This document shows positions 4,197-27,125 of a stretch of 64,000 bases of DNA, one piece after another; position 1 is the first letter of the stretch; each line of letters opens with the position of its first letter. Origin of the DNA: an uncultured Desulfarculaceae bacterium (GTDB taxonomy: Bacteria > Desulfobacterota > Desulfocorpusculales > Desulfocorpusculum). The translations under genes and the position numbers were made by a program. The stretch spans positions 12,242 through 76,241 of the forward strand of contig CAZEPJ010000010.1 of NCBI GenBank assembly GCA_964514105.1, written 5' to 3'. The notes beneath the pieces are model-generated. The model did not search any database and was not told where the DNA came from. It saw only the letters and a list, made by a program, of their open reading frames with translations.

Positions 4197-4269
4197 GGCA
4201 CACCTCCTCCGCATCTTGGCGTCATAAGGTGAACATGCTCCCATGCGCATCCGTCCTCGGGATTTTCGC

Positions 4270-4299
4270 TCTATAGCACCCCCGGCGGACGTTTGTCAA
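4270..4299 (-). promoter_or_regulatory. Putative sigma70 promoter for the substrate-binding protein gene
   Basis: Minus strand TTGACA-N18-TATAGA with TG extended -10; the -35 overlaps the TGA stop of the CoA ligase. Confidence 0.5.
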
Positions 4300-5903: not shown

Positions 5904-5943
5904 GGCGCACATGGATCCCGGTCCTGCCCTCCCCGTGGCCCCC

Positions 5944-6690
5944 TCAATTCATGAACTGCCCGCCATTGACGTCGATGGTCTGTCCGTTGATGTACCCCGC
6001 ATCGTCGGAGGACAGAAACACGGCCACCCGCGCCACGTCCTCCGCCACGCCGATGCGGCCCATGGGGATCCCTGCGAGGTAGCCCCGCCAGTCTCCCCCC
6101 GTGATCATCCGGGACATGTCCGATTCGATGGGCCCGGGTGCGATGGCGTTGACCCGGACACCGTGGGGCGCCAGGGCCTTGGCCAGGGACTTGGTGAGGC
6201 AGATGACCCCGGCCTTGGAGGCTGCGTAGTGCGCCCCCACGGCGATGCCGCCCACGCGGCCCGCCACCGAGGCCATGTTGACGATGACGCCGCTTCTTTG
6301 GCCCTTCATGACCCCCGAGACGGCCTGGGCGCACAGAAAGACCCCCTTGAGATTGACGGCCATCACCCGGTCCCATTCCCCCTCGTCGATCTCCTCCAAC
6401 GGTGTCGTGTGACAGATCCCCGCGTTGTTCACCAGGATGTCGATGCGGCCCAGGCCCTCGAGCACCGTCCCGACCGCCGAGCGTACCTCCTGGCCCCGGG
6501 ACACATCCACCCGCAGGGCCATCCCCCGGACGCCCGCTGCGCCCACCTGCGCGGCGACGGACTCGGCCCCCCGCAGGTCCGTGTCCCAGACCGCCACTTG
6601 GGCCCCCTCCCGGGCCAGGGCCAGGGCGATGGCCCGCCCGATCCCGGCCGCCCCGCCAGTCACGATACCCACCTTGCCCTCGCAACGCAT
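5944..6690 (-). CDS. Short-chain dehydrogenase/reductase (FabG-like)
   Basis: TGGAAGIG, NNAG, YAASK, NAIAPG, VNGG; acidic residue after beta2 (WD) suggests NAD(H). Confidence 0.92.
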   Translation of the reverse strand: MRCEGKVGIVTGGAAGIGRAIALALAREGAQVAVWDTDLRGAESVAAQVGAAGVRGMALRVDVSRGQEVRSAVGTVLEGLGRIDILVNNAGICHTTPLEEIDEGEWDRVMAVNLKGVFLCAQAVSGVMKGQRSGVIVNMASVAGRVGGIAVGAHYAASKAGVICLTKSLAKALAPHGVRVNAIAPGPIESDMSRMITGGDWRGYLAGIPMGRIGVAEDVARVAVFLSSDDAGYINGQTIDVNGGQFMN

Positions 6691-6790
6691 GGTCCGTCCT
6701 CCTTGGGCCCGGTCGTATCCCTCCGTCAGGCGGCGGGGCGCCTCCAACCCCCTTCGGGCCCCGGGGCGATGAACCCGCCACCGGCGGCGA

Positions 6791-7225
6791 TCAGCCCTGG
6801 GAATACTGCACGACCTCCACGGTATTTCCCTCGGGATCCCGCATGTACGTGCACCAGACTCCCTGCCGAACGTTCTGTGGCGGGGCGTTGAAGGCCACCC
6901 CCGCGGCCAGGAGCCGCTCGTATTCCTTGTGGACATCCGGGACGGCAAGGGCGAAGTGGGTGAAGCCCAGGTCGCACTGCCGCCTGCCGGGCCACGGCGC
7001 GCCCAGCGGGTTGTAGTACTGGAACAGCTCCAGGCGCAGGCCGTATCCACGCAGCATCACCATGTGACAGTGCGCCCCTTCCATGCCCACGACCCGCGAG
7101 AGGGCCTCGCCGCTTCGATGGTCCATGTCCCAGTCCACTTCGAACCCCAGCAGATCCCTGTAGAAGGCCAACGCACGGCCCATGTCGGCCACCGACAGAG
7201 CCACGTGATGGGTCGTCGCCTCCAT
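6791..7225 (-). CDS. VOC/glyoxalase-family protein
   Basis: HHVALSVADMGRALAFYRDLLG, LELFQY, THFALAV, DPEGNTVE: His/Glu metal-ligand pattern. Confidence 0.88.
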   Translation of the reverse strand: MEATTHHVALSVADMGRALAFYRDLLGFEVDWDMDHRSGEALSRVVGMEGAHCHMVMLRGYGLRLELFQYYNPLGAPWPGRRQCDLGFTHFALAVPDVHKEYERLLAAGVAFNAPPQNVRQGVWCTYMRDPEGNTVEVVQYSQG

Positions 7226-7241: not shown

Positions 7242-7952
7242 TCAGCCCAGCTGGAAATAGACCCGTTTGACCTCTTCATCGTCCATGAGGTCCCGACTCG
7301 CCCCGTGAAGCCCGATGCGTCCGTGCTCCAGGATGTAGACCCGCTGCGTCAGCCCCATGGCCAGGCTGGCGTCCTGCTCCACCAGGAGGACCGTGATCCC
7401 CGTCTTCCAGATCTCCTGAATGCTGTTGGCCAGAAGGTTCTTGACCAGGGGGGAGAGCCCCATGGCGGGTTCGTCCATCATGAGGAGCCGCGGCTTGCTC
7501 ATGAGGGAGCGGCCGATGGCCAGCATCTGCTGCTCTCCGCCGCTCAGGGTCCCGGACTCCTGGCGGGATCGCTCCCTGAGGATGGGGAAGAGTCCATAGA
7601 CGTACTGAAGATCCCTGGCCATGCCGTCGGCATCCCGCCGGAGGAAGCCGCCCATCTCCAGGTTTTCGGCCACGGTGAACTCGGTGAAAAGCTGCCTGCG
7701 CTCGGGGCAGTGCACGATCCCCATGCGGATGATCTCGTGGGGTTTCCGGCCATCGATGCGCCGGCCCTCGAAGAGGATCTCCCCCGCCACCGGCACCAGG
7801 GCCGATATGGCCCTGAGCAGGGTGCTTTTGCCCGCTCCGTTGGGGCCCACCACCCCCACCAGCTCCTGGGCGTCCAGGGACAGGGACAGGCCGTTGAGGG
7901 CGATGGCCTTGCCGTACATGACCCGGATCTCCTTGACCTCCAGAAGATGCAC
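7242..7952 (-). CDS. ABC ATP-binding protein (LivF-like)
   Basis: GPNGAGKST, HCPERR, LSGGEQQM, MDEP; GTG start. Confidence 0.92.
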   Translation of the reverse strand: MHLLEVKEIRVMYGKAIALNGLSLSLDAQELVGVVGPNGAGKSTLLRAISALVPVAGEILFEGRRIDGRKPHEIIRMGIVHCPERRQLFTEFTVAENLEMGGFLRRDADGMARDLQYVYGLFPILRERSRQESGTLSGGEQQMLAIGRSLMSKPRLLMMDEPAMGLSPLVKNLLANSIQEIWKTGITVLLVEQDASLAMGLTQRVYILEHGRIGLHGASRDLMDDEEVKRVYFQLG

Positions 7953-7953
7953 T

Positions 7954-8691
7954 TCATCCTCTCCTTTCGCCCAGGTACGCCGTCACCACCTGCTCGTTTC
8001 GCAGGATCTCGGCCGGGGTGCCCTCGGCGATCTTCTGGCCGAAGACCACGGCCACCACCCGCTCCACCAGCTTGAGCAGGTCCCGGAGCCGGTGCTCGAT
8101 GATGATCATGGTCTGGCCCCGCTCGTGCATCCTCCGGATGGCCGCCGAGAGGGTGACCGCATCCTCGGCGTCCAACCCCGAGAAGGGTTCATCCAGCAGC
8201 AGGATGTCGGGCTCCGTGGCCATGGCCCGGGCGATGTCCAGGAGCCGCAGCTCCCCGAAGGCGAGGTTCTTGGCCTTCTCGCCGAAGCGGTCGCCCAACC
8301 CCACCTCCTCCAGGAACTGCATGGCCACCTGCCATGGCTTTCGGCCCTGGTGGCGGTGGTGGCGAGCCCGGTGCGAGAAGCAGGGGATCATGACGTTTTC
8401 CAGGACCGCCATCTCCTTGAAGAGATCCACCAGCTGAAAGGTCCGGGACATGCCCCGGTTGACCACCTGAAAGGGCTTGAGGCCCGTGATCTCCTCTCCC
8501 TTGAACTTGACTCGGCCGGCATCGGGTTTGATGAAGCCCGTGATGACGTTAAACAGCGTGGTCTTGCCCGCCCCGTTGGGGCCGATGACGCCCACGAGAT
8601 CTCCCCGTCGGACCTCCATGTCGAAACCCATCAGGGCCTGCAACCCTCCGAAGGACTTGCTCAACCCCTTCAACTCCAGGATGGTCTCCAT
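7954..8691 (-). CDS. ABC ATP-binding protein (LivG-like)
   Basis: GPNGAGKTTLFN, SRTFQ, LLLDEP, IEH, TAYLG. Confidence 0.92.
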   Translation of the reverse strand: METILELKGLSKSFGGLQALMGFDMEVRRGDLVGVIGPNGAGKTTLFNVITGFIKPDAGRVKFKGEEITGLKPFQVVNRGMSRTFQLVDLFKEMAVLENVMIPCFSHRARHHRHQGRKPWQVAMQFLEEVGLGDRFGEKAKNLAFGELRLLDIARAMATEPDILLLDEPFSGLDAEDAVTLSAAIRRMHERGQTMIIIEHRLRDLLKLVERVVAVVFGQKIAEGTPAEILRNEQVVTAYLGERRG

Positions 8692-8719
8692 AGACTCCGC
8701 TCCGTCCGTGGCGGCGACG

Positions 8720-9691
8720 TCACACCGGCTGCGTCTCCCGGGCGCGAATCCGCCCCAGGCCCCGCCCGATGAGGTCCCACAGCCCCTTGGGCGCGAACAG
8801 CACGATGAGGACAACGGCGCTGCTGTAAATGAGCAGGCGCAACTCCCCCAGGAACCGCAACGACTCGTTCACCAGGGTCAGAAGGTAGGCCCCGATGATG
8901 GGCCCGGTGATGCTCCCCATTCCGCCCACCACCGCCATCATGAGGACCAGGGCGGAGAGCGAATCGTGGGCCATCTCGGGCCCCACGTGCATCTGGGCGT
9001 GGCCGTACATGGCCCCGGCCAGACCGGCGATGGCCGCGCTGATCATGAACGCCACGATCTTGTAGAAGGTCGTGTTGATCCCGGAGCCCTCGCTGGCGGT
9101 CTCGTTCTCGCCGATGGAGCGCAGGATCAGCCCGAAGGAGGACTTGGACAGAAAAAAGAGAAAGACCACGCAAGCGATCATCAGGACCCCGGAGAAGTAG
9201 TAGTTCTCCAGGGGACCGCCCATCAACCCGTCGATTCCCGAGAGGCCCTCTTCGCCGCCGAAGAGCTTGTGGTCGATCATGATCCACTTGTACAAGAGGG
9301 TGGCGAAGCAGAAGGTCACCGAGGCGAAGTACGGCCCCCGGAGCCTCAAGGTGAAGGAGCCCACCAGGAACCCGCAAAGCGCCGCCACCAGCGCGCCCAT
9401 GGGGAGGGTCGCCCACGGCCCCCAGCCCAAGTGCTTGTTCATGAGGGCCCCGGCGAACCCGGCCCCTCCGATGAAGAAGGCGTGGCCGAAGTTCACATTG
9501 CCCGTGAATCCGGTGAGGAGGTCCCAGCTGCAGGCGAGCAGCACGTAGTAATGGCACAAGAACAGGAGCTCCAGATGGTAAAACTCACCGAAGACCAGGG
9601 GCGCCAGCAGGACGCAGGCGCTGAAGGCGCCGAGCCCCAGCAGCCTGCGGCGCAAGAGCTTGGGACCGAAGAACTCCTCCCGAGTGGCCAT
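8720..9691 (-). CDS. ABC permease (LivM-like)
   Basis: GFTGNVNFGHAFF, LRLRGPYFA, LRSIGENE, GGMGSITGP. Confidence 0.9.
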   Translation of the reverse strand: MATREEFFGPKLLRRRLLGLGAFSACVLLAPLVFGEFYHLELLFLCHYYVLLACSWDLLTGFTGNVNFGHAFFIGGAGFAGALMNKHLGWGPWATLPMGALVAALCGFLVGSFTLRLRGPYFASVTFCFATLLYKWIMIDHKLFGGEEGLSGIDGLMGGPLENYYFSGVLMIACVVFLFFLSKSSFGLILRSIGENETASEGSGINTTFYKIVAFMISAAIAGLAGAMYGHAQMHVGPEMAHDSLSALVLMMAVVGGMGSITGPIIGAYLLTLVNESLRFLGELRLLIYSSAVVLIVLFAPKGLWDLIGRGLGRIRARETQPV

Positions 9692-9755
9692 ATGCGCTCC
9701 TTACTCTCGCCGTCCCATGGATTGGATCAGCCTCGCACAGAGCTTCCCAGCGCCG

Positions 9756-10616
9756 TCAATGGGCCCGCTTGCCCAACAGCCCCCTCGGGCGGATCACCAG
9801 GACCACGATGATCGCCACCAAATAGACCATGTCGGGGTAGTTGGCCGATATGAGCCGGCTCACGACGGTCTCGGAATACCCCAAGAGCATGCCCGCGATG
9901 ATGGCCCCTTCCACGCTCCCCAGCCCCCCGATGATGACCACGGCGAAGGCCTTGAACAGGGGGAAGGCCCACATGTTGGGCACCGCCTCGAGGATGGGGG
10001 CGATGAGCACCCCGGCCACGGCGGCCAGCGCCGCCGAGATGCCCATGGTGATCAGATAGACCCGCTCCGTCTGGATCCCCACCAGCACGGCCGCATCCAC
10101 GTTCTGGGCCACGGCAGAGATGGACTTCCCCGTCCGCGTCCTGTGGATGAACAACCAGAGCATGACGACCAGAATGCCCGATACCAGGAATGTCAGGAGC
10201 TTCTGGTACGACACCAGGATGTCTCCGATGAGGACCTCACCCTCGATGAAGTTCTTGACCGCCTTGCCGTGCGGGCCGAAGAAGGCGTACATGAGTTCCT
10301 GAAAGAAGAGGGCGAAGGCCAGGGTGATGATGAGCACGTACACGTGGCGTTCCCGCATGGGCCGGATGCAGAAGCGGTCGATGACCATGCCCACGCCGGC
10401 CGTGCCCGCAACGGCCAGGGCCGCGGACAGAGGGACGTTGATCCCCAGGACGGACATGAAGGTGTAGCCCAAATACGCCCCCAGCATGTAGAACGCCCCA
10501 TGGGAGAGGTTGATGATCCCGGCCACGCCGAAGATCAGGGTGAACCCCACGGATATGAGGGTGTACAGGGCCCCCCAGATGGTCCCCAGCACGAGGATGT
10601 CGACAAATGTGGTCAT
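9756..10616 (-). CDS. ABC permease (LivH-like)
   Basis: GFTLIFGVAGIINLSHG, TGKSISAVAQN, IIGGLGS, RPRGLLG. Confidence 0.9.
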   Translation of the reverse strand: MTTFVDILVLGTIWGALYTLISVGFTLIFGVAGIINLSHGAFYMLGAYLGYTFMSVLGINVPLSAALAVAGTAGVGMVIDRFCIRPMRERHVYVLIITLAFALFFQELMYAFFGPHGKAVKNFIEGEVLIGDILVSYQKLLTFLVSGILVVMLWLFIHRTRTGKSISAVAQNVDAAVLVGIQTERVYLITMGISAALAAVAGVLIAPILEAVPNMWAFPLFKAFAVVIIGGLGSVEGAIIAGMLLGYSETVVSRLISANYPDMVYLVAIIVVLVIRPRGLLGKRAH

Positions 10617-10700
10617 CGCGCCTCCCTTCGGAACGGGGGCCTGGCCGCCGGCCGTGCACCACGGGCGGCTGAATTCCGCTTCGTCACACTCGGGTTCGTG

Positions 10701-10777
10701 ACCCCATCCCCACGCCTCCCTTTGCACAAGAGGGAACAAGTACGCCCCCTTGCCTGCAAGGGGCAGGGGGATGGGGT
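10701..10777. repeat. Bipartite palindromic REP-like element
   Basis: Perfect 11-bp terminal inverted repeat ACCCCATCCCC (10701-10711) / GGGGATGGGGT (10767-10777) enclosing two internal hairpins, CTCCCTTTGCACAAGAGGGA and CCCCTTGCCTGCAAGGGG. Confidence 0.6.
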
Positions 10778-10788
10778 GTAACCCGCCG

Positions 10789-12024
10789 CTACTTCTTCAC
10801 CCAGGGCGGAGGCACGTAGGGGCCGGTCTTGAACTGATCCGGCCACACGACCACCTGCTTTCCCCCTTCCTGCCACTGGACCATGGGCATGACATACCTT
10901 CCCTCCAGGAGGTCGTGGGACTCCTTGTCGAAGCCGATCTCGGGGTGCAGGACGCCCTTGTACTTGATGTCCTCCAACCCCGCGATGATGTCATCCGACT
11001 TGAGGGACTTCTTCTGCTTGATGACCTCGGCCAGCATGTAGACCGTGTCGTAGGTGAACCCGGTGGTGTACACGGGGTTCGTGCCGAACTGCTTGACGTA
11101 CTTGTCCCACATGGGGATGGTCTTGTCGGTGAGCGGCGCCCGGGCGATGAAGTTGTACGTGATCTCCCCCAGACACTTGCCGCCCGTCATCTCCCAGTAC
11201 TTGGAGTCCATGCCCTGGACGTTGCACAACCCCATTTCCGCGGCCTGGCTGTCCTGCCACGCCTTGGAGATGGTGATGCTTGCCGCATGGCTGACGATCT
11301 GGGCGATCCACTGGGCGCCCTTCCCCTTGATGGCCGCGAAGGTGGGGGAGAAATCCTTCACGTCCACGTCGAACATCTCATAGAAGACCACCTCGAGGCC
11401 GGCAGCCTCCAGATCCTTCTTGAGGTTGGGGCCGTACTCGTGGACCCACTTGGTGTTCTCGGCCAGGATGGCGAACTTCTTGTACCCCAGCTGCTTGTGG
11501 ACGAACTCGGTGAGGAACTTGGCCGCCCACTTCTGCTGCCGGATGTCCGAGTTGATCATGTTGCGGAAGAAGTACTTGTACTTGGCGTAGTCCTTCTTGA
11601 CGGCGTTGGTGAGGTCGATGGAGGCCGTTCCCGTGGCCACGTACACGATCTTGTACTGGGGCAGGAAAGGCTGTATGGCCAGGGCCACGCCGCTGGAGTA
11701 CGCCCCCACGAGCACGTCGACCTTGTCCTCCAGCACGAGCTTCTTCATGGCCGTGATGCCCTTCTCGGGCTTGCCCTCGGTGTCGCCCACGACGATCTCG
11801 ATCTTCTTGCCGTGGATGCCCCCCGCGGCGTTGATCTCCTCGGCGGCCATCTTGGCCGCATTGTGGATCCCCTGCCCCTGGGGGAGCTGAACCGGACCCA
11901 GGGAACCGATTCGGATGGTCTCGGCCTTGGCGAAATCCCGGTCGACGGCCAAGGCATGGCCCCCAGCCATGGAGAAAACCATGAGCCCACAGACGACGAT
12001 CCAGCCCAATGCCCTTGCCTTCAT
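10789..12024 (-). CDS. ABC substrate-binding protein (Liv-type)
   Basis: Signal peptide, IRIGSLGP, GDTEGKPE, VLVGAYSSG. Confidence 0.9.
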   Translation of the reverse strand: MKARALGWIVVCGLMVFSMAGGHALAVDRDFAKAETIRIGSLGPVQLPQGQGIHNAAKMAAEEINAAGGIHGKKIEIVVGDTEGKPEKGITAMKKLVLEDKVDVLVGAYSSGVALAIQPFLPQYKIVYVATGTASIDLTNAVKKDYAKYKYFFRNMINSDIRQQKWAAKFLTEFVHKQLGYKKFAILAENTKWVHEYGPNLKKDLEAAGLEVVFYEMFDVDVKDFSPTFAAIKGKGAQWIAQIVSHAASITISKAWQDSQAAEMGLCNVQGMDSKYWEMTGGKCLGEITYNFIARAPLTDKTIPMWDKYVKQFGTNPVYTTGFTYDTVYMLAEVIKQKKSLKSDDIIAGLEDIKYKGVLHPEIGFDKESHDLLEGRYVMPMVQWQEGGKQVVVWPDQFKTGPYVPPPWVKK

Positions 12025-12164: not shown

Positions 12165-12923
12165 TCACCAGGCCATCCACCCTCCGTCCACGCACAGGAC
12201 CGCGCCGTGGACATAGTCCGACGCGGGAGAGGCCAGGAACAGAACGGCCCCCGCCAGGTCTTGGGGCCTGCCCCAGCGCCCGGCCGGGATCCTGGCCGTG
12301 ATGGCCTGGAAGCGAACGGGGTCTCGCTGCAGCGCCTCGGTGAAACCGGTCTCGAAGAAGCCCGGGGCCACGGCGTTGACGTTGATCCCCTTGCCCGCCC
12401 AGTCGTTGGCCAGGGCCTTGGTCAGCCCTGCGATGCCGTGCTTGGAGGCGGCGTAGGCCGCGACGTTCATCCCCCCCTGGAAGGCCAGGACCGAGGCGAT
12501 GTTGATGATCTTGCCCCGCCCGTTGCCCACCATGACGCGGGCTGCGGCCTGGCACAGGAGAAAGGCCGCGGTGAGGTCGATCTCCAAGGTGGCGTCCCAG
12601 TCGGCCTCGGGATAGTCCAAGGCCGGGGACCGGCGAATGATCCCGGAGTTGTTGACCAGGATGTCCAGGCCGCCCATGGCCTCGGCCACGGCCGGGACCA
12701 CCCGCCGCGTCTGCTCCCGCACCGTGAGATCCGCCGCACGGTGCAGGTACCGCCTCCCCAAGGCCCGGACGGACCGCTCCACTCCGGCACGGGGCGTTCG
12801 GCTGACCACGGCGACGTCCGCCCCCGCCTCGGCCAGGGCCACGGCCACGGCCCTGCCCAGGCCGCTGGTGCCGCCCGTGACCAGGGCCACCTTTCCCTCC
12901 ACGCGGAATGCATCCAGGATCAT
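12165..12923 (-). CDS. kduD: 2-dehydro-3-deoxy-D-gluconate 5-dehydrogenase-like SDR
   Basis: MILDAFRVEGKVALVTG, IIRR, INIASVLAFQGG, YAASK, LANDWA.KGINVNA.APG, IPAGRWG, VDGGW: closely follows the KduD pattern; substrate not proven. Confidence 0.75.
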   Translation of the reverse strand: MILDAFRVEGKVALVTGGTSGLGRAVAVALAEAGADVAVVSRTPRAGVERSVRALGRRYLHRAADLTVREQTRRVVPAVAEAMGGLDILVNNSGIIRRSPALDYPEADWDATLEIDLTAAFLLCQAAARVMVGNGRGKIINIASVLAFQGGMNVAAYAASKHGIAGLTKALANDWAGKGINVNAVAPGFFETGFTEALQRDPVRFQAITARIPAGRWGRPQDLAGAVLFLASPASDYVHGAVLCVDGGWMAW

Positions 12924-13103
12924 GGCCGCCTCTTCCATGGAAGACCGTGCCCCCGCTCACCCCGCACAGCACAACGGGGTATTGGGAGCGGCGATCCCGC
13001 ATCGCTTCCCATCGAATTCGCATTCCTCTATCACGGGCGGGCATGGGATTTCAAGCCTCCCCGTCCCGTCCCGCGCCCGGAGCCGGGGCCGTCGTCCTCA
13101 GAT

Positions 13104-14831
13104 TCAACGGCGGGGGGGGATGTGAATGGCCTCTTTGCTCCAGTCCAGGGCCGCCTCCATCACCGCTTCGGACAAGGTCGGATGCCCCTTGACCACCCCT
13201 CCCAGGTCTTCCACGGTCGCCTCCAGCCCCATTGCCAGGAGCCCCTCGCCCATGAGGTCCGTCGCATGCTCCCCCAGGATGTGGAGGCCCAGGATGCGCC
13301 CCAGACTCGCCTCGGCGATGATCTTGACGAACCCATCGGGCTCCCCCATGGCCATGGCCTTTCCGCTGCTGCCATACGGGAACCTGCCCACCCGCACGTC
13401 GAGCCCCCCGGCCCGGGCGTCCCGCTCCCTCAGCCCCACCGAGGCCACCTCCGGGAAGGTGTAGATGCAGCTCGGGATCCGATGGTAGTCCATCTCCCGG
13501 CACCGGCCCCGAGCGTTCTCCACGGCCACGATCCCCTCGGCCGAGGCGGCGTGGGCCAGCATCATCCCTCCCACGACGTCCCCCACGGCGTAGATCCCCT
13601 CGACGCAGGTCTCCATGCGCGCGTTGACCCGGACGAATCCCCTCTCCAGGGCAACGCCGATCCGCTCGAGGCCCAACCCTTCGGTGACGGGGACCCGGCC
13701 GGCCGCCACCAGGAGCCGATCCCCGGAGGCCCGATCCGCTTTTCCCGACGCGTCCCGGAAGGTCACCCCAACGCGCTTCCCCACGGCCTCCGCCCCAACC
13801 ACCTCCACCGCGGTGACGATCTCGATGCCCCGCCTGGCCAATAGCAGGGTCAGGGCGCGGATGACCTCGTCGTCCTCGCCTGCGGCGATGGTGGGGAGCA
13901 TCTCAAGCACGGTCACCTTGGATCCCAGCGCGTTGAAGATGCAGGCGAATTCCAGCCCGACGACGCCGCCGCCGATGACGATCAGATCGCGGGGGATCTG
14001 CTGGATCTCCAGGATCTGGTCGCTGGAAAGCACGCGCCTTCCGTCCACGGCCACCCCGGGGATGGCCGCGGGTCTGGAGCCCGTTGCCAGGATGATCGAA
14101 CCTGCCCGATACGATCCCGGCTCATCCCCCCCGGCGACCCGGATGGCGCCGGCCTCGACCACAGACGCCTCTCCCCGCACGAGCCGCACGCCGTTGGTCT
14201 GGAGCAGTTTGGCCACGCCCCGGGTCATGGCCCGGACCACGTCGTCCTTGCGGGCCACCATGCGCCTGAGATCAACCCGCAGGGCGTCTCCTCCCTCGTA
14301 CACCGATGACGAGCGGACCTTGAGGAGGGGCTTGACGTCGGACAGGAAGCACTTGGTGGGGATGCACCCCCGGTTGAGGCAGGTCCCCCCCAGGCGCTCC
14401 TTTTCCACGACGAGGACTTTGGCGCCCAGCTGGGCAGCCCGGATGGCCGCCACGTATCCCCCCACCCCGGCGCCCACGACGGCCACGTCATACGCCCCCT
14501 CTCCCCGGGGGGGCGCCGCGGCGCTTCCCGCCGGAGGAGGGGCGGTCGCCGACGAGGCGCCCTCGGCGGCGGGAAGCGCGGCCAGGGATTCCCCCTCGTG
14601 CAGGATGACCCCCACCACCGTCAGCACCGGGATCTCCACGCCCTCGGGCACCAGGATCCTCCCCAGTGTGCCCGAGGCCGGCGACTCCACCTCGGTGGTG
14701 ACCTTGTCCGCCTCCACCTCGAAGAGGGGCTCCCCCTTGACAACGGGGTCCCCCTCCTTCTTGAACCACTTGAGGATGGCCCCCTTCTCCACGGTGATGC
14801 CCAGCATGGGAAACACGACTTCCGTCGCCAT
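13104..14831 (-). CDS. lpdA: Dihydrolipoyl dehydrogenase (E3) with N-terminal lipoyl domain
   Basis: Lipoyl domain EVEADKVTTEVESPASG; FAD GAGVGG; redox disulfide GGTCLNRGCIP; NAD GGGVVG; HPTLSE. Confidence 0.93.
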   Translation of the reverse strand: MATEVVFPMLGITVEKGAILKWFKKEGDPVVKGEPLFEVEADKVTTEVESPASGTLGRILVPEGVEIPVLTVVGVILHEGESLAALPAAEGASSATAPPPAGSAAAPPRGEGAYDVAVVGAGVGGYVAAIRAAQLGAKVLVVEKERLGGTCLNRGCIPTKCFLSDVKPLLKVRSSSVYEGGDALRVDLRRMVARKDDVVRAMTRGVAKLLQTNGVRLVRGEASVVEAGAIRVAGGDEPGSYRAGSIILATGSRPAAIPGVAVDGRRVLSSDQILEIQQIPRDLIVIGGGVVGLEFACIFNALGSKVTVLEMLPTIAAGEDDEVIRALTLLLARRGIEIVTAVEVVGAEAVGKRVGVTFRDASGKADRASGDRLLVAAGRVPVTEGLGLERIGVALERGFVRVNARMETCVEGIYAVGDVVGGMMLAHAASAEGIVAVENARGRCREMDYHRIPSCIYTFPEVASVGLRERDARAGGLDVRVGRFPYGSSGKAMAMGEPDGFVKIIAEASLGRILGLHILGEHATDLMGEGLLAMGLEATVEDLGGVVKGHPTLSEAVMEAALDWSKEAIHIPPRR

Positions 14832-14856
14832 GGCAAGCCTCGGGTTCGGTCGATCT

Positions 14857-15891
14857 TCAGACCTGCAGAAAGGCGTACGCCGGGTTCTCCAGCCTCCCCT
14901 TGAAGGCCTGAAGGAAGGCGGCGGCCAGGGTCCCGTCGATGATCCGATGGTCCACCGAGAGGCCGAAGCAGGTCACGGGTTTGGTCCGGACCTGCCCGTC
15001 CACCAGGGCCAACCGCTCCTCCATCTTCCCCACCGACAAGATGCCGCTCTGGGGCGGGTTGAGGATGGCGGTGAAGCAGGTGATGTCGAACTGGGCGAGG
15101 CTCGACACCGTGAATGTGCCCCGCTCCATCTCCTCCAGGGTGAGCCGCCCGGCCCGGGCCCGCTCCACCAGGTCGGCCCGCGCGCGGGCGCTCTGGGCCA
15201 GGCCCAGCTCGTCGGTGCGGCGGATGGCGGGGACCAGGAGCCCCTCCTCGGATGCCACGGCAAGACCCACGTTGATCTCGGGGTGGACCACCGCCGACTC
15301 TCCGTCCACCCGGGCGTTGAGCAGGGGGAACTCCCGGATGGTGAGTGCCGCGGCCTTGAGGATGAAGTCGTTGAGGGAGACCCGCACCCCGTGGTCCCGC
15401 TCCAGCGCCGCCATCACGTCCGACCGAAGAGCCAGCAGCCGTCCCATTTCCACGTCGGTGAAGAAGTAGATGTGGGGGGCGGTGAAGGCGCTCTCGCTCA
15501 TGCGCCTGGCGATGGCCCGGCGCATGCGGCTCATGGGGATGGTCTGGCCCAACCCCACACCGCCCCAAGCGCTGCGGGGCGGGCGGGGGGAGGCCGCCTC
15601 GGTCCTTGCCCCGGATGGGACGTCCCGCAGAAAGACGCGCCCCCCCGGGCCGCTTCCCGGCACGCCCTCCAGGGAGATGCCCTCCCCATGAGCGAACCGC
15701 ATGGCCAGGCTGGTGGGCCGAAGGGGAGACGGGCCCGCGTCCCCTCTCCGGGGAAGCAGCGGTGCGTGCACACGGGCCTGCACGTCCCGCAGCAGTATGC
15801 TTCCGCCGGGACCCGAGCCTCGGAGCTCCGCCAGATCGACGCCGTGGGTTTTCGCCAGTTTCCTGGCCGCAGGCATGGCTCGAATGATCAT
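14857..15891 (-). CDS. Dihydrolipoamide acyltransferase (E2) lacking a lipoyl domain, with two E3/E1-binding domains
   Basis: Two PSBD repeats (AARKLA..HGVDL..L.GSGPGGSI...DV and LAMRFA...GISL..VPGSGPGGRV...DV); catalytic DHRIIDG; GGAGGAGG RBS before ATG. Confidence 0.9.
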   Translation of the reverse strand: MIIRAMPAARKLAKTHGVDLAELRGSGPGGSILLRDVQARVHAPLLPRRGDAGPSPLRPTSLAMRFAHGEGISLEGVPGSGPGGRVFLRDVPSGARTEAASPRPPRSAWGGVGLGQTIPMSRMRRAIARRMSESAFTAPHIYFFTDVEMGRLLALRSDVMAALERDHGVRVSLNDFILKAAALTIREFPLLNARVDGESAVVHPEINVGLAVASEEGLLVPAIRRTDELGLAQSARARADLVERARAGRLTLEEMERGTFTVSSLAQFDITCFTAILNPPQSGILSVGKMEERLALVDGQVRTKPVTCFGLSVDHRIIDGTLAAAFLQAFKGRLENPAYAFLQV

Positions 15892-15919: not shown

Positions 15920-16900
15920 TCACGCGTAGGCCATGACGCGCCGCACCGCCTCCAGGACGTCCTCCTCGTCGGGGATGTAGGCCTTTTCCAGGGGCGGGCT
16001 GAAGGGCACGGGGGTGTCCGGCGAGCAGACCCTCGCCACCGGCGCGACCAGGCTGTCCAGGGCCTCTTCCGCGACCAAGGCCGAGATCTCGGCCGCCACG
16101 CCCGCCGTCAGGTGCCCCTCGTCAGCCACGATCAGCCGACCCGTCTTCCGCACGGAGCTCAGGATCGCCTCCTTGTCCAGGGGCGTCAGCGTCCTGGGAT
16201 CGACCACCTCCATCTCCACCCCTTCCTTCTCCATGTCCGCGGCCACCTTGAGGGTCCTGAGGACCATGGCGTGGGTGGCCACCACGGTGACGTCGCGCCC
16301 GGCCCGTTTGACCTCCGCCTGTCCGAAGGGAATGGTGTAGTAGTCCTCCGGCACCGGGCCCTTCTCCACGTAGAGCTTCTTGTGCTCGACGAAGACCACG
16401 GGGTTGTCGTTCCGAATGGCCTCGATCATGAGCCCCTTGGCGTCGTACGGCGTGGAGGGCGTGGCCACCAGGAGACCGGGGATGTGCATGAACAGGGCAT
16501 GGAAGCTCTGGGAGTGCTGAGCTGCCGCCCCACGGCCGGCCCCGATATTGACGCGCAGGACCATGGGGACCTTCCCCCGGCCTCCGAACATGTAGTGGAT
16601 CTTGGCCATCTGGTTCACGATCATGTCCATGCACACCGTTGTGAAGTCGATGAACATGATCTCCACCACGGGCCGCAGGCCGGTCAGCGCCGCTCCCACC
16701 CCGGCACCCACGAACGCGGCCTCGGAGATCGGCGTGTCCATGACGCGCTGGGGACCGAATTCCTGCAGCAGCCCGGCCGTGACCTGGAAGATCCCCCCGT
16801 ACCGGCCGATGTCCTCCCCCATGAGGAGGATGCGCTCGTCCCTGGACATGCTCTGCCGCAGGGCTTCGTTGATGGCCTGCGCATAGGTCAGCTCTCTCAT
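15920..16900 (-). CDS. TPP-dependent dehydrogenase E1 beta subunit (AcoB/PdhB-like)
   Basis: MRELTYAQAI, GEDIG, DTPISEAAF, EIMFIDF, AAQHSQS, DPRTL. Confidence 0.92.
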   Translation of the reverse strand: MRELTYAQAINEALRQSMSRDERILLMGEDIGRYGGIFQVTAGLLQEFGPQRVMDTPISEAAFVGAGVGAALTGLRPVVEIMFIDFTTVCMDMIVNQMAKIHYMFGGRGKVPMVLRVNIGAGRGAAAQHSQSFHALFMHIPGLLVATPSTPYDAKGLMIEAIRNDNPVVFVEHKKLYVEKGPVPEDYYTIPFGQAEVKRAGRDVTVVATHAMVLRTLKVAADMEKEGVEMEVVDPRTLTPLDKEAILSSVRKTGRLIVADEGHLTAGVAAEISALVAEEALDSLVAPVARVCSPDTPVPFSPPLEKAYIPDEEDVLEAVRRVMAYA

Positions 16901-16911
16901 GGTATCTCCCT

Positions 16912-17886
16912 TCATGCCGGGACGTGCACGTCCTCGAACATCTCCTGCAGCCCGGGAAACGGGCTTTCCTGGGCGAAACGAACGGCCTCGTCCAGCTCCT
17001 CGACCAGGGCCCTGTCCACCTGGGCCAGCCTCTTTCGGGTCACGAGCTTTTCCCCCAGCAGGCGCGCCTCGAGCCGCTTGATGGGGCATCGGGCCTTCCA
17101 TTCGTCGATCTCCTCGCGGGTCCGATAGCGTGCCCCCTGGTTGGGGTCACCCTCGTGGTGACCCCGCCAGCGGTAGGTCTTGCACTCCATGAGCGTAGGC
17201 CCCTCTCCGGCCCGGGCCCTCCGCACGGCCTTGACCGCGGCCTCACGGACGTCCAGCACATCGTTGCCGTCGACAACCACTCCCGGAATGTCGTAGCTCG
17301 TGGCCCGGATGGCGATGTCCTGGATCGGCTGGTGCATCTGCTGGTGCACGGAGATGCCGTACCGGTTGTTCTCACACACGAAGATCACCGGCAGTCTGTG
17401 CAGGGCGGCGAAATTGAGGCTCTCGTGAAAGGTCCCGTTGTTGGACGAACCATCGCCGAAGAAACTCGCCACCACCTGGTCGCTCTTTCGATACTTGGCC
17501 GACAGCCCGGCGCCCACGGCCAGGGGAAGGCCCCCTCCGGCGATTCCGTTGGCGCCCAGGATCCCGATGTCCATATCGGCGATATGCATGGAGCCTCCCT
17601 TCCCCTTGCAGTATCCTGTGCGCTTGCCAAAGAGCTCGGCCATCATGTACCTGAGCTCCGCCCCCTTGGCGATCACGTGCCCGTGGCCCCGGTGGGTGCT
17701 GGTGATGTAGTCGTCATGGCGGAGGGCGGCGCAGACGCCCGCGGCCACCGCTTCCTCGCCCACGTACAGGTGGGCCAGTCCCGGGACCTCTCCCCGGGCG
17801 TACAGATCCTGGATCCTCTCCTCGAACAGCCGGATCTTGAGCATCGTGGTATAGAGACCGAGAAGCTGCGCCTTGCTGGGGGCCAT
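16912..17886 (-). CDS. TPP-dependent dehydrogenase E1 alpha subunit (AcoA/PdhA-like)
   Basis: STHRGHGH, KGKGGSMH, TPP motif GDGSSNNGTFHESLN, TYRWRGH. Confidence 0.92.
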   Translation of the reverse strand: MAPSKAQLLGLYTTMLKIRLFEERIQDLYARGEVPGLAHLYVGEEAVAAGVCAALRHDDYITSTHRGHGHVIAKGAELRYMMAELFGKRTGYCKGKGGSMHIADMDIGILGANGIAGGGLPLAVGAGLSAKYRKSDQVVASFFGDGSSNNGTFHESLNFAALHRLPVIFVCENNRYGISVHQQMHQPIQDIAIRATSYDIPGVVVDGNDVLDVREAAVKAVRRARAGEGPTLMECKTYRWRGHHEGDPNQGARYRTREEIDEWKARCPIKRLEARLLGEKLVTRKRLAQVDRALVEELDEAVRFAQESPFPGLQEMFEDVHVPA

Positions 17887-17961: not shown

Positions 17962-17977
17962 AGCAATCTTCATGCCA
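17962..17977 (-). promoter_or_regulatory. Sigma54 (-24/-12) promoter of the dehydrogenase operon
   Basis: Minus strand TGGCATGAAGATTGCT matches TGGCAC-N5-TTGCW with exact spacing, about 75 nt upstream of E1 alpha. Confidence 0.85.
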
Positions 17978-18140: not shown

Positions 18141-20111
18141 CTACCCGAGCCCGTGGCGCGCCATCCTGCGGTAGAGGGTGCTGCGCGAGATGTCGAGGGT
18201 CCTGGCGGCCAGGGAGCGGTTGCCCCGGCTCTGCCTCAAGGCCTTTTCGATCATCTGGCGCGTCCCGTCCCGGAGGGAGACACCCTGGAAGGATTCGGCG
18301 CCGGGCCTTTCCCAGAGGCGGTTGGTCAGATGCTCCATGCGGATGTCCTTGCCGTTGGACAGGATGAGGGCCCTCTCGAGGCAGTTCTCGAGCTCGCGGA
18401 CGTTGCCCGGCCAGTGATAGCCCTTGAAGGCCTCCAGGGCCTCAGCCGGGACCTGTGGCCTCTGGCGTCCCAACTCGGCGCATTGCCGATCCAGGATGCT
18501 GTCCATGAGCAGCTCCAGATCCTCCCGCCTCTCCCGAAGGGGGGGGACGCGGATTTCGACCACGTTGAGGCGGTAGTAGAGATCCTCCCTGAAATTCCTC
18601 TGTTCCACCTCCAAAAACAGGTCCTTGTTGCTCGCCGCGATGACGCGGACGTCCACCGCCATGGGCCCCTTGTCCCCCAGCCGTGTGACCTCGCTTTGCT
18701 GCAGTACCCTCAGGAGCTTGGCCTGGAGATCCAGGGGCAGACCGTCGATCTCGTCCAGGAACAGGGTGCCGCCGTCGGCCAACTCGAATCTGCCCACCTG
18801 CCCCTCCCGGCGGGCCCCCGTGAATGCGCCCCCGACGTACCCGAAGAGCTCGGCCTCGATGAGGTCCCGCGGGATGGCTGCGCAGGAGATGGCCACGAAC
18901 GGCCCTTCCCGGCGGGCGCTGTAGTTGTGGATGGCCTGAGCGAAGAGCTCCTTGCCCGTGCCGCTTTCGCCGACGATGAGGACCCTGGAGTTGGTCCTGG
19001 CGGCGATTCTGGCCAGCTCCACCTGCTTGCGGAAATGAGGGTCACGACCCTTGATATCCTCGAACCGATACCTGGCGTAGTTGCCTCCCAGGGCCTGCAC
19101 CATCCGGAAGACCTTTCCACGCTCGTGGATGGTGAGGACGCTGCCCCGCACCTCGCTGCCGCGTCCCAGGATGGGGAAAAGGCTGCAGATATGCCGTCGG
19201 GGCGGCTGGGAGGCGAAAAAGGATATCTCCCGGTTGGAGAAGTAGTCCTTCCCGGCAATGGCGTCGCTCATGGGCGGATCCGGTCGGCAGATTTCGTCCA
19301 GCCGCTTGCCCACCGCAGCCGCCCTTCCGAGGATGAGCGATCGCCTTGCCGCCTGATTGATGTGGGTGACCATGCCGTCTCTGTCCATGGCCACCACGCC
19401 ATCGGTGATGGCATCAAAGATGGCATTGAGGAGGTTGTTGAGGGACTCCTTTTCCCCGACCAGCTCCCTTTCCTTGATCCGCCCCTCGATGGCCCTGGCC
19501 GCCGAGATGACCAGCGCCAGGGTGTGTTGGTGTCTCCCCTTGGACATGCCCGACAGGGTGATGGCCCCGAGGAGGCGCCCGTGGCCATCGAGAATGGGGG
19601 CCGACGAACAGGTCCAGGGCTGGTGATGGACATTGTAGTGCTCAGCCCCCGTGAGCTGTATCGGCCTCCTTTCCACGAGGCAGAGGCCGATGGCGTTGGT
19701 GCCCGAATACGCCTCCGAGCGACACGAGCCCGGCAGATAGAAGTTCTCCTGCGCCATGCGCAGGATGGCCTCGTCGCCGAGGACCAGCAGGACGTATCCG
19801 TCCCGATCGGCCAGGGTGGTGATGAACCCCGTCCCCCGCACCGAAATCTCGAGCATCTCCACCACGGGTTCGGCCGCCGCGATGAACGCCTTGTTCTCCT
19901 CCAGGAGTTCTCGCAACCGTTGCCGAGACAGGGCCACGGCCTCTCTCTTGTGAGCGGGGTCCAACCCCAGGGCCCTGCACCGCTTCCATGACTCAAGGAC
20001 GTGTTCGCGCACTCCCCTCGTGGGCACCTGGCCCCTCAGGACAAAGGCCTCCCATGCCCCCTTGGTGGCCGCTGTCTCCCTGGGGCGCGAGGCGTTGCCG
20101 GTCCTTTCCAT
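18141..20111 (-). CDS. acoR: Sigma54-dependent Fis-family activator, GAF-PAS-AAA+-HTH (AcoR-like)
   Basis: SWKRC N-terminus, GTNAIG GAF motif, HQPWTCSSAPI, GESGTGKE, ELFGY..GAFTGA, LFLDEI, WPGNVREL, ISRSTLYR. Confidence 0.85.
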   Translation of the reverse strand: MERTGNASRPRETAATKGAWEAFVLRGQVPTRGVREHVLESWKRCRALGLDPAHKREAVALSRQRLRELLEENKAFIAAAEPVVEMLEISVRGTGFITTLADRDGYVLLVLGDEAILRMAQENFYLPGSCRSEAYSGTNAIGLCLVERRPIQLTGAEHYNVHHQPWTCSSAPILDGHGRLLGAITLSGMSKGRHQHTLALVISAARAIEGRIKERELVGEKESLNNLLNAIFDAITDGVVAMDRDGMVTHINQAARRSLILGRAAAVGKRLDEICRPDPPMSDAIAGKDYFSNREISFFASQPPRRHICSLFPILGRGSEVRGSVLTIHERGKVFRMVQALGGNYARYRFEDIKGRDPHFRKQVELARIAARTNSRVLIVGESGTGKELFAQAIHNYSARREGPFVAISCAAIPRDLIEAELFGYVGGAFTGARREGQVGRFELADGGTLFLDEIDGLPLDLQAKLLRVLQQSEVTRLGDKGPMAVDVRVIAASNKDLFLEVEQRNFREDLYYRLNVVEIRVPPLRERREDLELLMDSILDRQCAELGRQRPQVPAEALEAFKGYHWPGNVRELENCLERALILSNGKDIRMEHLTNRLWERPGAESFQGVSLRDGTRQMIEKALRQSRGNRSLAARTLDISRSTLYRRMARHGLG

Positions 20112-20212
20112 GGCACCCTCCTTGGTCTCGCCGACCTCTCCCGATGGAGGAGGGTCAGATTCCCGGTCGGTCGAGCAGGGATGGGGTTCACTATAGCACA
20201 GCCCGCGGGTTG

Positions 20213-20229
20213 TGTGCCGTCTTGGGACA
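20213..20229. promoter_or_regulatory. Third TGT-N11-ACA site, overlapping the probable acoR -35 region
   Basis: TGTGCCGTCTTGGGACA (minus strand TGTCCCAAGACGGCACA); extended -10 TGCTATAGT at 20190-20198 on minus strand. Confidence 0.45.
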
Positions 20230-20268
20230 CCTTTCCCGACCCGCTCCCCGAAGCCGGCCCGTTTTCCC

Positions 20269-20297
20269 TTGGCCCCCGGTCTCGGCTGCCCTACAAT
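20269..20297 (+). promoter_or_regulatory. Putative sigma70 promoter for the DUF362 gene
   Basis: TTGGCC-N17-TACAAT. Confidence 0.45.
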
Positions 20298-20341
20298 GGT
20301 CCCTAAGAACGCCCCGACGGGCCGGACAGGAGGACGGGATC

Positions 20342-21331
20342 ATGGATTTCAAACCCGAGGATCTGGTCTTTCACCGCGAGGCCTACCATGCCCACCTGGC
20401 CCAGATGCGGCCCAAGGACTACCCGCCTTTCCTGAGCCGGGAGGTGGCGGGACAGTCCGACTGGCGCCACTGCCGGCCCAACCCGTACGTCCGGGAGGGG
20501 AGGGCCCTGGTCTCCTTCGCGGTCGCTTCGGGGGACATCCTGGCCGACGTGCGGCGGGCCGTGGAGCTGCTGGGCGGCGTGGAGGCGGCCATCCGGCCCC
20601 AGGACCGGGTGCTCATCAAACCCAACTTCAACAGCGACGATCCGCCCCCGGGCTCCACGGCTCTGGACTTCCTGTGCGCGGTCATCGAGCTGTTGCGGGA
20701 GCACGGCTGCAGCCGCATCCATGTGGGGGAGAGCGCCGGGCGGCCCTGGGTTCCCACGGAAAAGGTCTTTTGCAACACGGGCCTCTCGGCCCGGATGGCC
20801 CGGATGCAGGTCCCCCTGCTGGACTTCGACCGGGCGCGATTCCTGGATGTGCGAGTGGGGGGCGAGTTCTGGGACCGGGTGGCCTACCCTGCGGAGATGG
20901 AGGTCTTCGACAAGATCGTGTACCTCCCCACCATGAAGACCCACTTCGCCGCGGGATTCTCCATGAGCCTCAAGCTCACCGTGGGGTTGACCCATCTCGC
21001 CGACCGCATGACCCTCCACGCGGACAACAACATGTTCGTCTGCCAGCGGGCCGTGGAGATGGGAGCTCCGGTCAAACCGGACCTCATCATCATGGACGGG
21101 CGGGTGTCCTTCATCAGCGGCGGACCGGCCATCGGGTTGGCCGTCCATCCCGGCGTCATCCTGGCCTCGGGGGACCCTGTGGCCCTGGACGTCCAGGGGG
21201 TCCGGCTCCTGCAGAACTACGCGGCGGTGAACCACCTGACGGGGGACGCCTGGCAGCTGCCCCAGATCCGCACGGCGGTCCAACTGGGCCTGGGGGCGCG
21301 AGGCGATGAGGAGATGCGCCTGGTGCGCTGA
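20342..21331 (+). CDS. DUF362 domain-containing protein
   Basis: DRVLIKPNFN, VGES, PTMKTH..AGFSMSLKL.VG, PDLIIMDG, D.VALD. Confidence 0.8.
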   Translation: MDFKPEDLVFHREAYHAHLAQMRPKDYPPFLSREVAGQSDWRHCRPNPYVREGRALVSFAVASGDILADVRRAVELLGGVEAAIRPQDRVLIKPNFNSDDPPPGSTALDFLCAVIELLREHGCSRIHVGESAGRPWVPTEKVFCNTGLSARMARMQVPLLDFDRARFLDVRVGGEFWDRVAYPAEMEVFDKIVYLPTMKTHFAAGFSMSLKLTVGLTHLADRMTLHADNNMFVCQRAVEMGAPVKPDLIIMDGRVSFISGGPAIGLAVHPGVILASGDPVALDVQGVRLLQNYAAVNHLTGDAWQLPQIRTAVQLGLGARGDEEMRLVR

Positions 21332-26017: not shown

Positions 26018-26053
26018 CGGTTACCGCAGGGTGCTGACAGAAGCCTCCGGTGG

Positions 26054-26122
26054 GGCACCCCGGCCAAGCCGGAGTCGAGAAATGGCTGCATTCACAGGGT
26101 CCCGGCCTCCCTCGGGATGACG
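26054..26122. repeat. Degenerate bipartite palindromic (REP/dRS3-like) repeat
   Basis: GGCACCCCGGCCAAGCCGGAGTC ... GGTCCCGGCCTCCCTCGGGATGAC resembles the GTCA(T/C)(T/C)CCGGCGAAAGCCGG...GG(A/T)TCCCGGCCT..GCCGGGATGAC repeat family. Confidence 0.4.
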
Positions 26123-26241
26123 TTTGAGGGCTTCTTGCGCGGTTTTTGGGCCTCCTGCCGGGGGGTGAGAGTCGGGTGATCAAGGCCGGCAGGCGGTCGC
26201 CTCTTTCACGGTCAGTGAGCGTTGAGCGCTGGAGGGGTGTC

Positions 26242-27009: not shown

Positions 27010-27125
27010 GGCCCCGCCAGGAGGCTTCCCGCCACGGCCAGGCACGGGAGACGGCGCGGCGGAAAAAAAGGAAAGACGGGGACGCCCCGGGGAACGGGCG
27101 GTCCTGGGGGAGGGAAGGATCCACG

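Follow-up and report, generated by a model that had tools for sequence, protein, structure and literature searches.

A dehydrogenase operon of an uncultured Desulfarculaceae bacterium with a lipoyl-less E2 and the lipoyl domain on E3

A stretch of 64,000 nt from an uncultured Desulfarculaceae bacterium (CAZEPJ010000010.1), hereafter called the window, contains an operon for a multienzyme dehydrogenase complex made of E1alpha, E1beta, the acyltransferase E2 and the dihydrolipoyl dehydrogenase E3. All operon genes are on the minus strand. In the textbook model of 2-oxoacid dehydrogenases, the swinging lipoyl arm is anchored to the E2 core, which is also how the model accounts for active-site coupling. 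Here the region 13104-15891 consists exactly of the E3 and E2 genes, and its lipoyl domain is located on E3. The two proteins and their domains are as follows, with hidden Markov model abbreviated as HMM, peripheral-subunit-binding domain as PSBD, and the per-residue confidence of AlphaFold2 given as pLDDT.

14857..15891, minus strand: E2 acyltransferase without a lipoyl domain, 344 aa (Pfam E3_binding twice and 2-oxoacid_dh, no Biotin_lipoyl)
15778..15885, minus strand: PSBD1, E2 residues 3-38 (best Pfam stretch; AlphaFold2 helical module with pLDDT 83-92)
15604..15717, minus strand: PSBD2, E2 residues about 59-96 (second Pfam E3_binding stretch; AlphaFold2 module 57-99 with pLDDT 82-84)
14869..15546, minus strand: E2 catalytic domain, residues 116-341 (Pfam 2-oxoacid_dh, PF00198, E 7.8e-73; DHRIIDG at 314-320)
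13104..14831, minus strand: E3 dihydrolipoyl dehydrogenase with an N-terminal lipoyl domain, 575 aa (Pfam Biotin_lipoyl, Pyr_redox_2 and Pyr_redox_dim)
14598..14831, minus strand: lipoyl domain, E3 residues 1-78 (lipoyl HMM 136.9 bits; Lys43 codon at 14703-14705, in EVEADKV)
14496..14597, minus strand: Ala/Pro-rich flexible linker of 34 residues, E3 residues 79-112 (read from the sequence; low identity to the closest relative, L081)

The E1beta stop codon (TGA, 15920-15922) is followed by 28 nt including GGAGGAGGAG and then by the E2 ATG at 15891, in agreement with the short gap and the strong ribosome-binding site of the original prediction. Between 15891 and the nearest in-frame stop 216 nt upstream, there is no ATG, GTG or TTG in frame, and this open 216-nt stretch lies within E1beta. 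E2 has no match to the lipoyl family PF00364, and the lipoyl HMM is silent in every frame upstream. Thus, none of the one to three N-terminal lipoyl domains that define E2 proteins is found in the window E2. A hidden or frameshifted lipoyl segment 5′ of E2 was ruled out by the 28-nt gap, the lack of an upstream start codon, and the HMM match in E3 only.

The remainder of E2 is intact. The predicted DHRIIDG was found at residues 314-320, where it agrees with the acyltransferase active-site pattern DHRxxDG and is unchanged across 32 aligned E2 homologues. The PSBD family PF02817 is matched by two stretches with a total of 82.2 bits. The protein scores under the cutoff of all NCBIfam E2 equivalogs. 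An AlphaFold2 model built with 32 homologues has helical modules at residues 1-43 and 57-99 (pLDDT 82-92) followed by a confident catalytic domain, with low-confidence linkers at 44-55 and 98-107. An E2 with two binding domains and no lipoyl domain, as had been proposed, is confirmed.

E3 begins 25 nt past the E2 stop in another frame, and this gap and the differing frames rule out an E2-E3 read-through fusion. E3 passes the dihydrolipoyl dehydrogenase model TIGR01350 (514.5 bits versus a cutoff of 408.8), and its translation contains GGTCLNRGC, with the redox-active CxxxxC expected of E3, and HPTLSE; Pyr_redox_2 and Pyr_redox_dim supply the FAD/NAD and dimerisation domains. Its Biotin_lipoyl match in Pfam spans residues 4-69 (E 1.4e-17). 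When the lipoyl HMM was run over all stop-to-stop frames of the window, the E3 N-terminus was the only match. Pfam and the HMM thus bear out the claim that the lipoyl domain at the start of E3 is complete and has no second copy in the window. Lys43 appears lipoylatable, and E3 is predicted to be lipoylated.

Among the best 120 E2 homologues, 42 lack a lipoyl domain; about 38 of them are complete (342-358 aa), and in these, Met and a short leader directly precede the first binding domain. A lipoyl-less E2 is present in about a fifth of the species-level genomes in the clade. By these counts, 'unusual', as the architecture had been called, is a relative term.

Operons were taken from species-representative genomes and from contigs encoding three lipoyl-less E2 homologues, and each was scored for a lipoyl domain on E2 and on E3. 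After duplicates were removed and four frameshift-broken loci were corrected, the operons were distributed as follows.

Lipoyl-less E2: 13 with a lipoyl domain on E3, 0 with plain E3
Lipoylated E2: 2 with a lipoyl domain on E3, 30 with plain E3

The association of lipoyl-less E2 with lipoyl-bearing E3 (13/13 versus 2/32) has a Fisher p of 1.4e-9, with shared ancestry uncorrected. The 13 lipoyl-less operons are that of the window and 12 others of the clade. A 14th lipoyl-less E2 (L136), slightly under the identity cut, is also accompanied by a lipoyl-bearing E3. The closest relative, L081, comes from a separate NCBI assembly, and with an E2 77% identical to that of the window, it has the same split and the same neighbours. 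These operon relatives are all from metagenome-assembled genomes (MAGs) of Thermodesulfobacteriota ('Deltaproteobacteria'). A conserved ABC-F protein gave no information on the identity of the organism, its best hits being 78-79% identical and scattered among several phyla.

Three other arrangements were seen among the homologous loci. First, one unbroken frame encodes E1alpha, E1beta, one binding domain and a lipoyl-less E2 catalytic domain in L130 (2781-5915, 1045 aa; Desulfobacterales MAG) and L136 (2775-5864, 1030 aa; Desulfosarcina MAG), and this fused E1-E2 frame is followed by a lipoyl-bearing E3. Each of these two genomes also has a standard cluster (L110 and L009, respectively). To our knowledge, a protein that unites a heterodimeric E1 with E2 in this way has not been described. 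Second, the lipoyl domain stands as its own open reading frame (ORF) just upstream of a lipoyl-less E2 ORF in L019 (88-1421; Anaerolineales MAG) and L065 (2174-3465; Chthoniobacterales MAG), an arrangement that stems from a frameshift error or else represents a lipoyl protein of its own. Third, E3 or E2 is broken into several short ORFs in L082 (9082-10833), L083 (9188-10947), L099 (6038-7777) and L119 (4605-5973), which come from long-read-like 'contig_' assemblies; these breaks are likely indel errors rather than real pseudogenes.

Selection on the split proteins was estimated as dN/dS, the ratio of nonsynonymous to synonymous substitution rates, between the window and L081. For E3, it is 0.28 in the lipoyl domain, 0.75 in the linker and 0.42 in the core; for E2, it is 0.30 in PSBD1, 0.46 in PSBD2 and 0.17 in the catalytic domain. 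Amino-acid identity between the two E3 proteins is 86% in the lipoyl domain and 29% in the linker, whose identity and dN/dS are both typical of such a segment. The E3-borne lipoyl domain is under purifying selection. Every E3-borne lipoyl domain retains the lysine of VE[AT][DE]KV and a low-complexity linker of 30-55 residues.

These results bear on two simpler accounts of the missing E2 domain. It might be an artefact or a recent lesion, such as a deletion, a misassembly, a wrong start codon or a decaying operon, and frameshift errors do occur in these genes in the related long-read assemblies L082, L083, L099 and L119. Yet E1beta is full length and lies 28 nt from E2, whose ribosome-binding site is strong, neither another start codon nor a frame coding for a lipoyl domain is present upstream, the about 38 complete homologues of 342-358 aa share the same beginning, the same architecture recurs in independent assemblies, and all domains are under purifying selection, so we give this account almost no credence. 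Alternatively, E2 might have no protein-bound arm at all and act on free dihydrolipoamide or as a scaffold, the E3 lipoyl domain being irrelevant to catalysis. E2 catalytic domains and E3 can use free lipoamide in vitro, albeit poorly. This account is very improbable because E1 components generally require a folded lipoyl domain as substrate, and it would leave the strict co-occurrence, the conserved lysine and the selection on the E3 lipoyl domain without explanation.

The E3-borne domain resembles the arms of E2. That of the window shares 79% identity with the lipoyl domain that the nearest standard operon, L010, has on E2, whereas identities between the same two operons are 69% for E1alpha, 70% for E1beta, 70% for the E2 catalytic domain and 59% for the E3 core. 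Because the lipoyl domain is at 79% when the E2 catalytic domain is at 70% and the E3 core at 59%, the arm tracks the operon phylogeny and not its carrier. E3-borne lipoyl domains are as similar to E2-borne arms as those are to one another. It is thus the same arm on another carrier, conserved on E3 as strongly as on E2. This is what one would predict for an arm that has to be recognised by the E1 and E2 active sites as before.

In two operons, L006 (7611-10818) and L008 (7575-10920), E2 and E3 each have a lipoyl domain. Identity between the copies of one operon is 75% and 87%, respectively, suggesting that the E2 arm was duplicated onto E3, and these operons are likely evolutionary intermediates in arm relocation. 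Concatenated sequences of E1alpha, E1beta, the E2 catalytic domain and the E3 core were used for a bootstrapped neighbour-joining tree, where L006 and L008 fall within the standard clade (bootstrap 92-100%). The window pairs with L081 (100%), and the pair falls in a weak group (63%) with other split operons and the standard L010 group; L117, L127 and L130 are outside this group. In the tree of lipoyl domains, E3-borne domains are interleaved with E2-borne ones. A single origin of all E3-borne lipoyl domains is not supported, given this interleaving and the nesting of L006 and L008 in the standard clade. From the tree positions of L006 and L008 relative to the window, the arm was therefore gained on E3 at least twice. 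No exact number of events is claimed, as the deeper branching among split lineages is weak (48-63%).

The doubled binding domain had been taken as part of the rearrangement, and this part of the original prediction has to be dropped. According to a PSBD HMM, two PSBDs are present in 59 of the 61 E2 proteins of the clade, lipoylated and lipoyl-less alike, the two exceptions being one frameshifted and one truncated gene. Two PSBDs are also found in some Chloroflexota and Firmicutes relatives at 39-44% identity. Because lipoylated and lipoyl-less members share the pair, the duplication is older than the split and not its consequence, and an adaptation specific to the split is ruled out by the clade count and by these more distant relatives. 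In alignment, the window E2 is a clade E2 minus the first 125-130 residues.

The two binding domains differ in sequence. PSBD1 has GGS in place of the usual GGR, with P7, A8, A9, G27, P28 and G30 invariant in the clade alignment; throughout the clade, the residue at the GGR position is non-basic, and the arginine of PAAR is retained. PSBD2 retains the canonical GGRV, with G79, G81, G84, R85 and D90 conserved clade-wide. In the Geobacillus PSBD, the GGR and PAAR positions contact E1 and E3. By analogy, PSBD1 and PSBD2 could plausibly have different partner preferences and tether E1 and E3 separately.

Taken together, we consider it probable that the operon encodes a working E1alpha/beta-E2-E3 complex, with a sigma54 promoter and an AcoR-like activator, in which the swinging arm has moved from the E2 N-terminus to the E3 N-terminus. 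That E3 supplies the sole arm to a lipoyl-less E2, as originally proposed, is supported by the 13/13 co-occurrence, the conserved lysine and linker, the purifying selection and the precedent of Mycoplasma hyopneumoniae; its action in trans we infer from sequence.

In such a complex, the E2 catalytic domains would form the core, and each chain would display two binding domains on flexible linkers. E3 dimers would dock to a binding domain, and each E3 chain would bring its lipoyl domain (Lys43) on the linker of about 34 residues. The arm would be reductively acylated at E1, pass its acyl group to CoA at the E2 active site, and be re-oxidised at the active site of its own E3. A pair of binding domains on each E2 chain could allow E1 and an E3 with its arm to dock simultaneously, so that arm supply would not compete with E1 docking; which binding domain takes which partner we infer. 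As for origin, the E2 arm of the same operon family would have been duplicated onto E3 and then lost from E2, operons with both copies being still extant.

A different donor of the arm has to be weighed here. The lipoyl-less E2 could borrow the arm of another lipoylated protein encoded elsewhere, for instance a paralogous E2, as actinobacterial OdhA uses the lipoyl domains of the E2 of pyruvate dehydrogenase (PDH). The E3 domain would then have some other role, for example as a self-substrate or a redox buffer. Standard clusters with lipoylated E2 do coexist with split or fused operons (L114 in the MAG of L003, L110 with L130, and L009 with L136), and the lipoyl-bearing E3 beside a fully lipoylated E2 in L006 and L008 means that the E3 domain is not always the sole arm. 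However, the E2 arm is lost only where E3 has one (13/13) and never with plain E3, the E3-borne domain stays like an E2 arm, as expected if the cognate E1 still recognises it, and no further lipoyl domain exists within the 64 kb. We thus regard borrowing as unlikely.

Several points weigh against an arm relocated to E3 and its proposed use. The co-occurrence statistic takes no account of shared ancestry, and no cultured organism with the split was found, every split operon coming from a MAG or a metagenome. Another lipoylated E2 or a free lipoyl protein may be encoded elsewhere in the genome, as the MAG with the split operon L003 has L114, an E2 with its own lipoyl domain. E3 occupancy would determine how many arms each complex has, and flux may be limited by this. 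The part assigned to the double binding domain is speculative, and the same split has been described in M. hyopneumoniae.

On the relocation of the arm to E3, we extend the argument tentatively. The attachment point of the arm could be interchangeable in this clade, having moved between the E2 core and E3 more than once via both-copy intermediates, and this would be tolerable through the ancestral PSBD pair, which could hold E1 and the arm-bearing E3 on one chain. If true, natural variants with the arm on E2, on both, on E3, and on E3 beside a fused E1alpha-E1beta-E2 could test the need for core anchoring. They would form a matched natural series for examining tether position, arm number and two binding domains against substrate channelling.

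The nearest functional parallel is the PDH of M. hyopneumoniae, in which PdhD (E3) is the lipoylated subunit in vivo, at K42 (PMC7873978). There the lipoyl domain is on PdhD and not on PdhC, the two being encoded in one operon, pdhCD (PMC7873978, where Matic et al. 2003 are cited as having predicted this from the pdhCD sequence). Both systems have a lipoyl-less E2 beside an E3 with an N-terminal lipoyl domain, the lysine being K42 there and K43 here. The window operon differs in belonging to another phylum and an anaerobe-type lineage, in the two binding domains of its E2, and in its sigma54 regulation. Common descent with the Mycoplasma proteins, tested as membership in the NCBIfam short-E2 equivalogs, failed: the window E2 scores 140.3 versus a cutoff of 378 for NF008815 (308 aa) and 181.8 versus 429 for NF011416 (347 aa), and it is most closely related to lipoylated E2s from its own clade. 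Therefore, the resemblance to Mycoplasma is convergent, one of function and not of lineage. The origin was most likely independent of Mycoplasma, as the window E3 arm is closest to the E2 arms of sister operons.

Lipoyl-bearing E3 proteins are also known from Alcaligenes eutrophus and Neisseria meningitidis (PMC7873978). Neisseria P64k (PDB 1BHY, 1OJT and 5U25) and A. eutrophus PdhL share with the window E3 the N-terminal lipoyl domain, the linker and the dihydrolipoyl dehydrogenase core, and the lipoyl-bearing Neisseria E3 of 5u25 (602 aa) can be aligned with window E3 residues 26-562. The counterparts of the Neisseria and A. eutrophus systems are L006 and L008 rather than the window, since the E2 proteins there retain their own lipoyl domains and the E3 domain is an extra. 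Within the Thermodesulfobacteriota clade, lipoylated-E2 operons such as L010, L085 and L086 have the same gene order and two binding domains as the window, but their lipoyl domain and a linker of about 40 residues are on E2, and their E3 is plain. In actinobacterial OdhA/KGD, a lipoyl-less acyltransferase domain is likewise served in trans by a lipoyl domain of another subunit, but there the PDH E2 rather than E3 is the donor, and the catalytic domain that lacks a lipoyl domain forms a fusion with E1o. The fused E1alpha-E1beta-PSBD-E2 of L130 and L136 is still closer in form to OdhA/KGD.

No literature on lipoyl-less E2 in Desulfobacterota, or survey of the E2/E3 lipoyl split, was found. The comparisons give good support to an independently evolved case of a known but rare arm-on-E3 arrangement, apparently recurrent under selection in a sulfate-reducer-type clade. 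M. hyopneumoniae is the one experimentally confirmed bacterial exception to the textbook model, and the window would extend this solution to a free-living lineage unrelated to Mycoplasma. Comparison with related operons shows in addition that the arrangement is stable and selected, derived from the E2 arm of the same family, and coexistent with arm-on-E2 and arm-on-both relatives. For annotation, a short lipoyl-less E2 in these genomes should not be labelled as a pseudogene or as truncated.

The rest of the operon, its promoter-like site and its activator are arranged upstream of E2. TPP, GAF, PAS and HTH stand for thiamine pyrophosphate, the two sensory domain families of these names, and helix-turn-helix.

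15920..16894, minus strand: E1beta, 324 aa (Pfam Transket_pyr and Transketolase_C; passes NF006667 with 382.9 bits versus a cutoff of 321)
16912..17886, minus strand: E1alpha, TPP-dependent, 324 aa (Pfam E1_dh, E 1e-84)
17962..17977, minus strand: sigma54 -24/-12 promoter-like site TGGCATgaagaTTGCT, located 76 nt before the start codon of E1alpha (ATG at 17886)
18141..20111, minus strand: sigma54-dependent activator of the AcoR/DhaR/PrdR type with GAF, PAS, AAA+ and Fis-type HTH domains (Pfam Sigma54_activat E 6.9e-67, GAF, PAS_4 and HTH_8)

The true start of E1alpha is the ATG at 17886, which is preceded by GGAGGAG and fits the length of the homologues (322-328 aa); a longer E1alpha ORF reaching 18036 was therefore rejected as an over-extension, as was a longer E1beta ORF reaching 17101 in the mechanical ORF list. 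The promoter-like site TGGCATgaagaTTGCT has one mismatch against TGGCAC-N5-TTGCW and is the sole such site in the intergenic region between the activator and E1alpha. Because the count of -24/-12 matches across the window is not above chance, the support for the site is its position. For the activator, the top NCBIfam models are DhaR and PrdR, both under cutoff.

In organisation, the operon is like the acetoin dehydrogenase system (acoABCL, AcoR, sigma54): the order is E1alpha-E1beta-E2-E3, a GAF/PAS sigma54 activator of the AcoR type is adjacent, and the -24/-12 site is at the expected position with one mismatch. Described AcoC proteins carry a lipoyl domain, in which they differ from the window E2. 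On the other hand, E1alpha reaches 372.8 bits with TIGR03182, the PDH equivalog, just under the cutoff of 393.85, and most of its homologues at 70-78% identity bear the name 'pyruvate dehydrogenase E1 alpha'; a few are called 'pyruvate/acetoin' and a single one 'acetoin:DCPIP oxidoreductase'. The earlier description as an aco-type sigma54-controlled operon thus fits the activator, promoter and gene order, but not the homologue names, which rarely mention acetoin. The complex would be of the pyruvate/acetoin type, with either acetoin or pyruvate as the putative substrate.

Downstream of E3 lie the following.

12165..12938, minus strand: short-chain dehydrogenase (SDR), KduD-like, directly downstream of E3 (Pfam adh_short_C2)
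7242..12024, minus strand: Liv-type ABC transporter with a binding protein, two permeases and two ATPases (ORFs and translations; ABC_tran domain)

The adjacent SDR scores 324.9 bits with TIGR01832, slightly under the cutoff of 338.85, and 190.9 with the BudC model, under 270, so it is KduD-like and not clearly a butanediol dehydrogenase. The binding protein of the transporter has a weak NCBIfam match to a branched-chain amino acid family. Past the transporter, at 2901-7050 on the minus strand, there are a second periplasmic binding protein (2901-4250), an acyl-CoA synthetase (4296-5912) and a second SDR (5944-7050), which may be part of the same catabolic island as the operon.

A DUF362 gene adjoins the operon both in the window (19988-21331, plus strand) and in L081 (4522-5517), and an AMP-binding CoA ligase also lies nearby in both (window 4296-5912; L081 2563-4215). 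This shared neighbourhood may be a hint at the pathway. A few kb upstream of the regulator, at 24851-28067 on the plus strand, there are an iron-containing alcohol dehydrogenase (24851-26017) and a 3-hydroxyacyl-CoA dehydrogenase (26772-28067).

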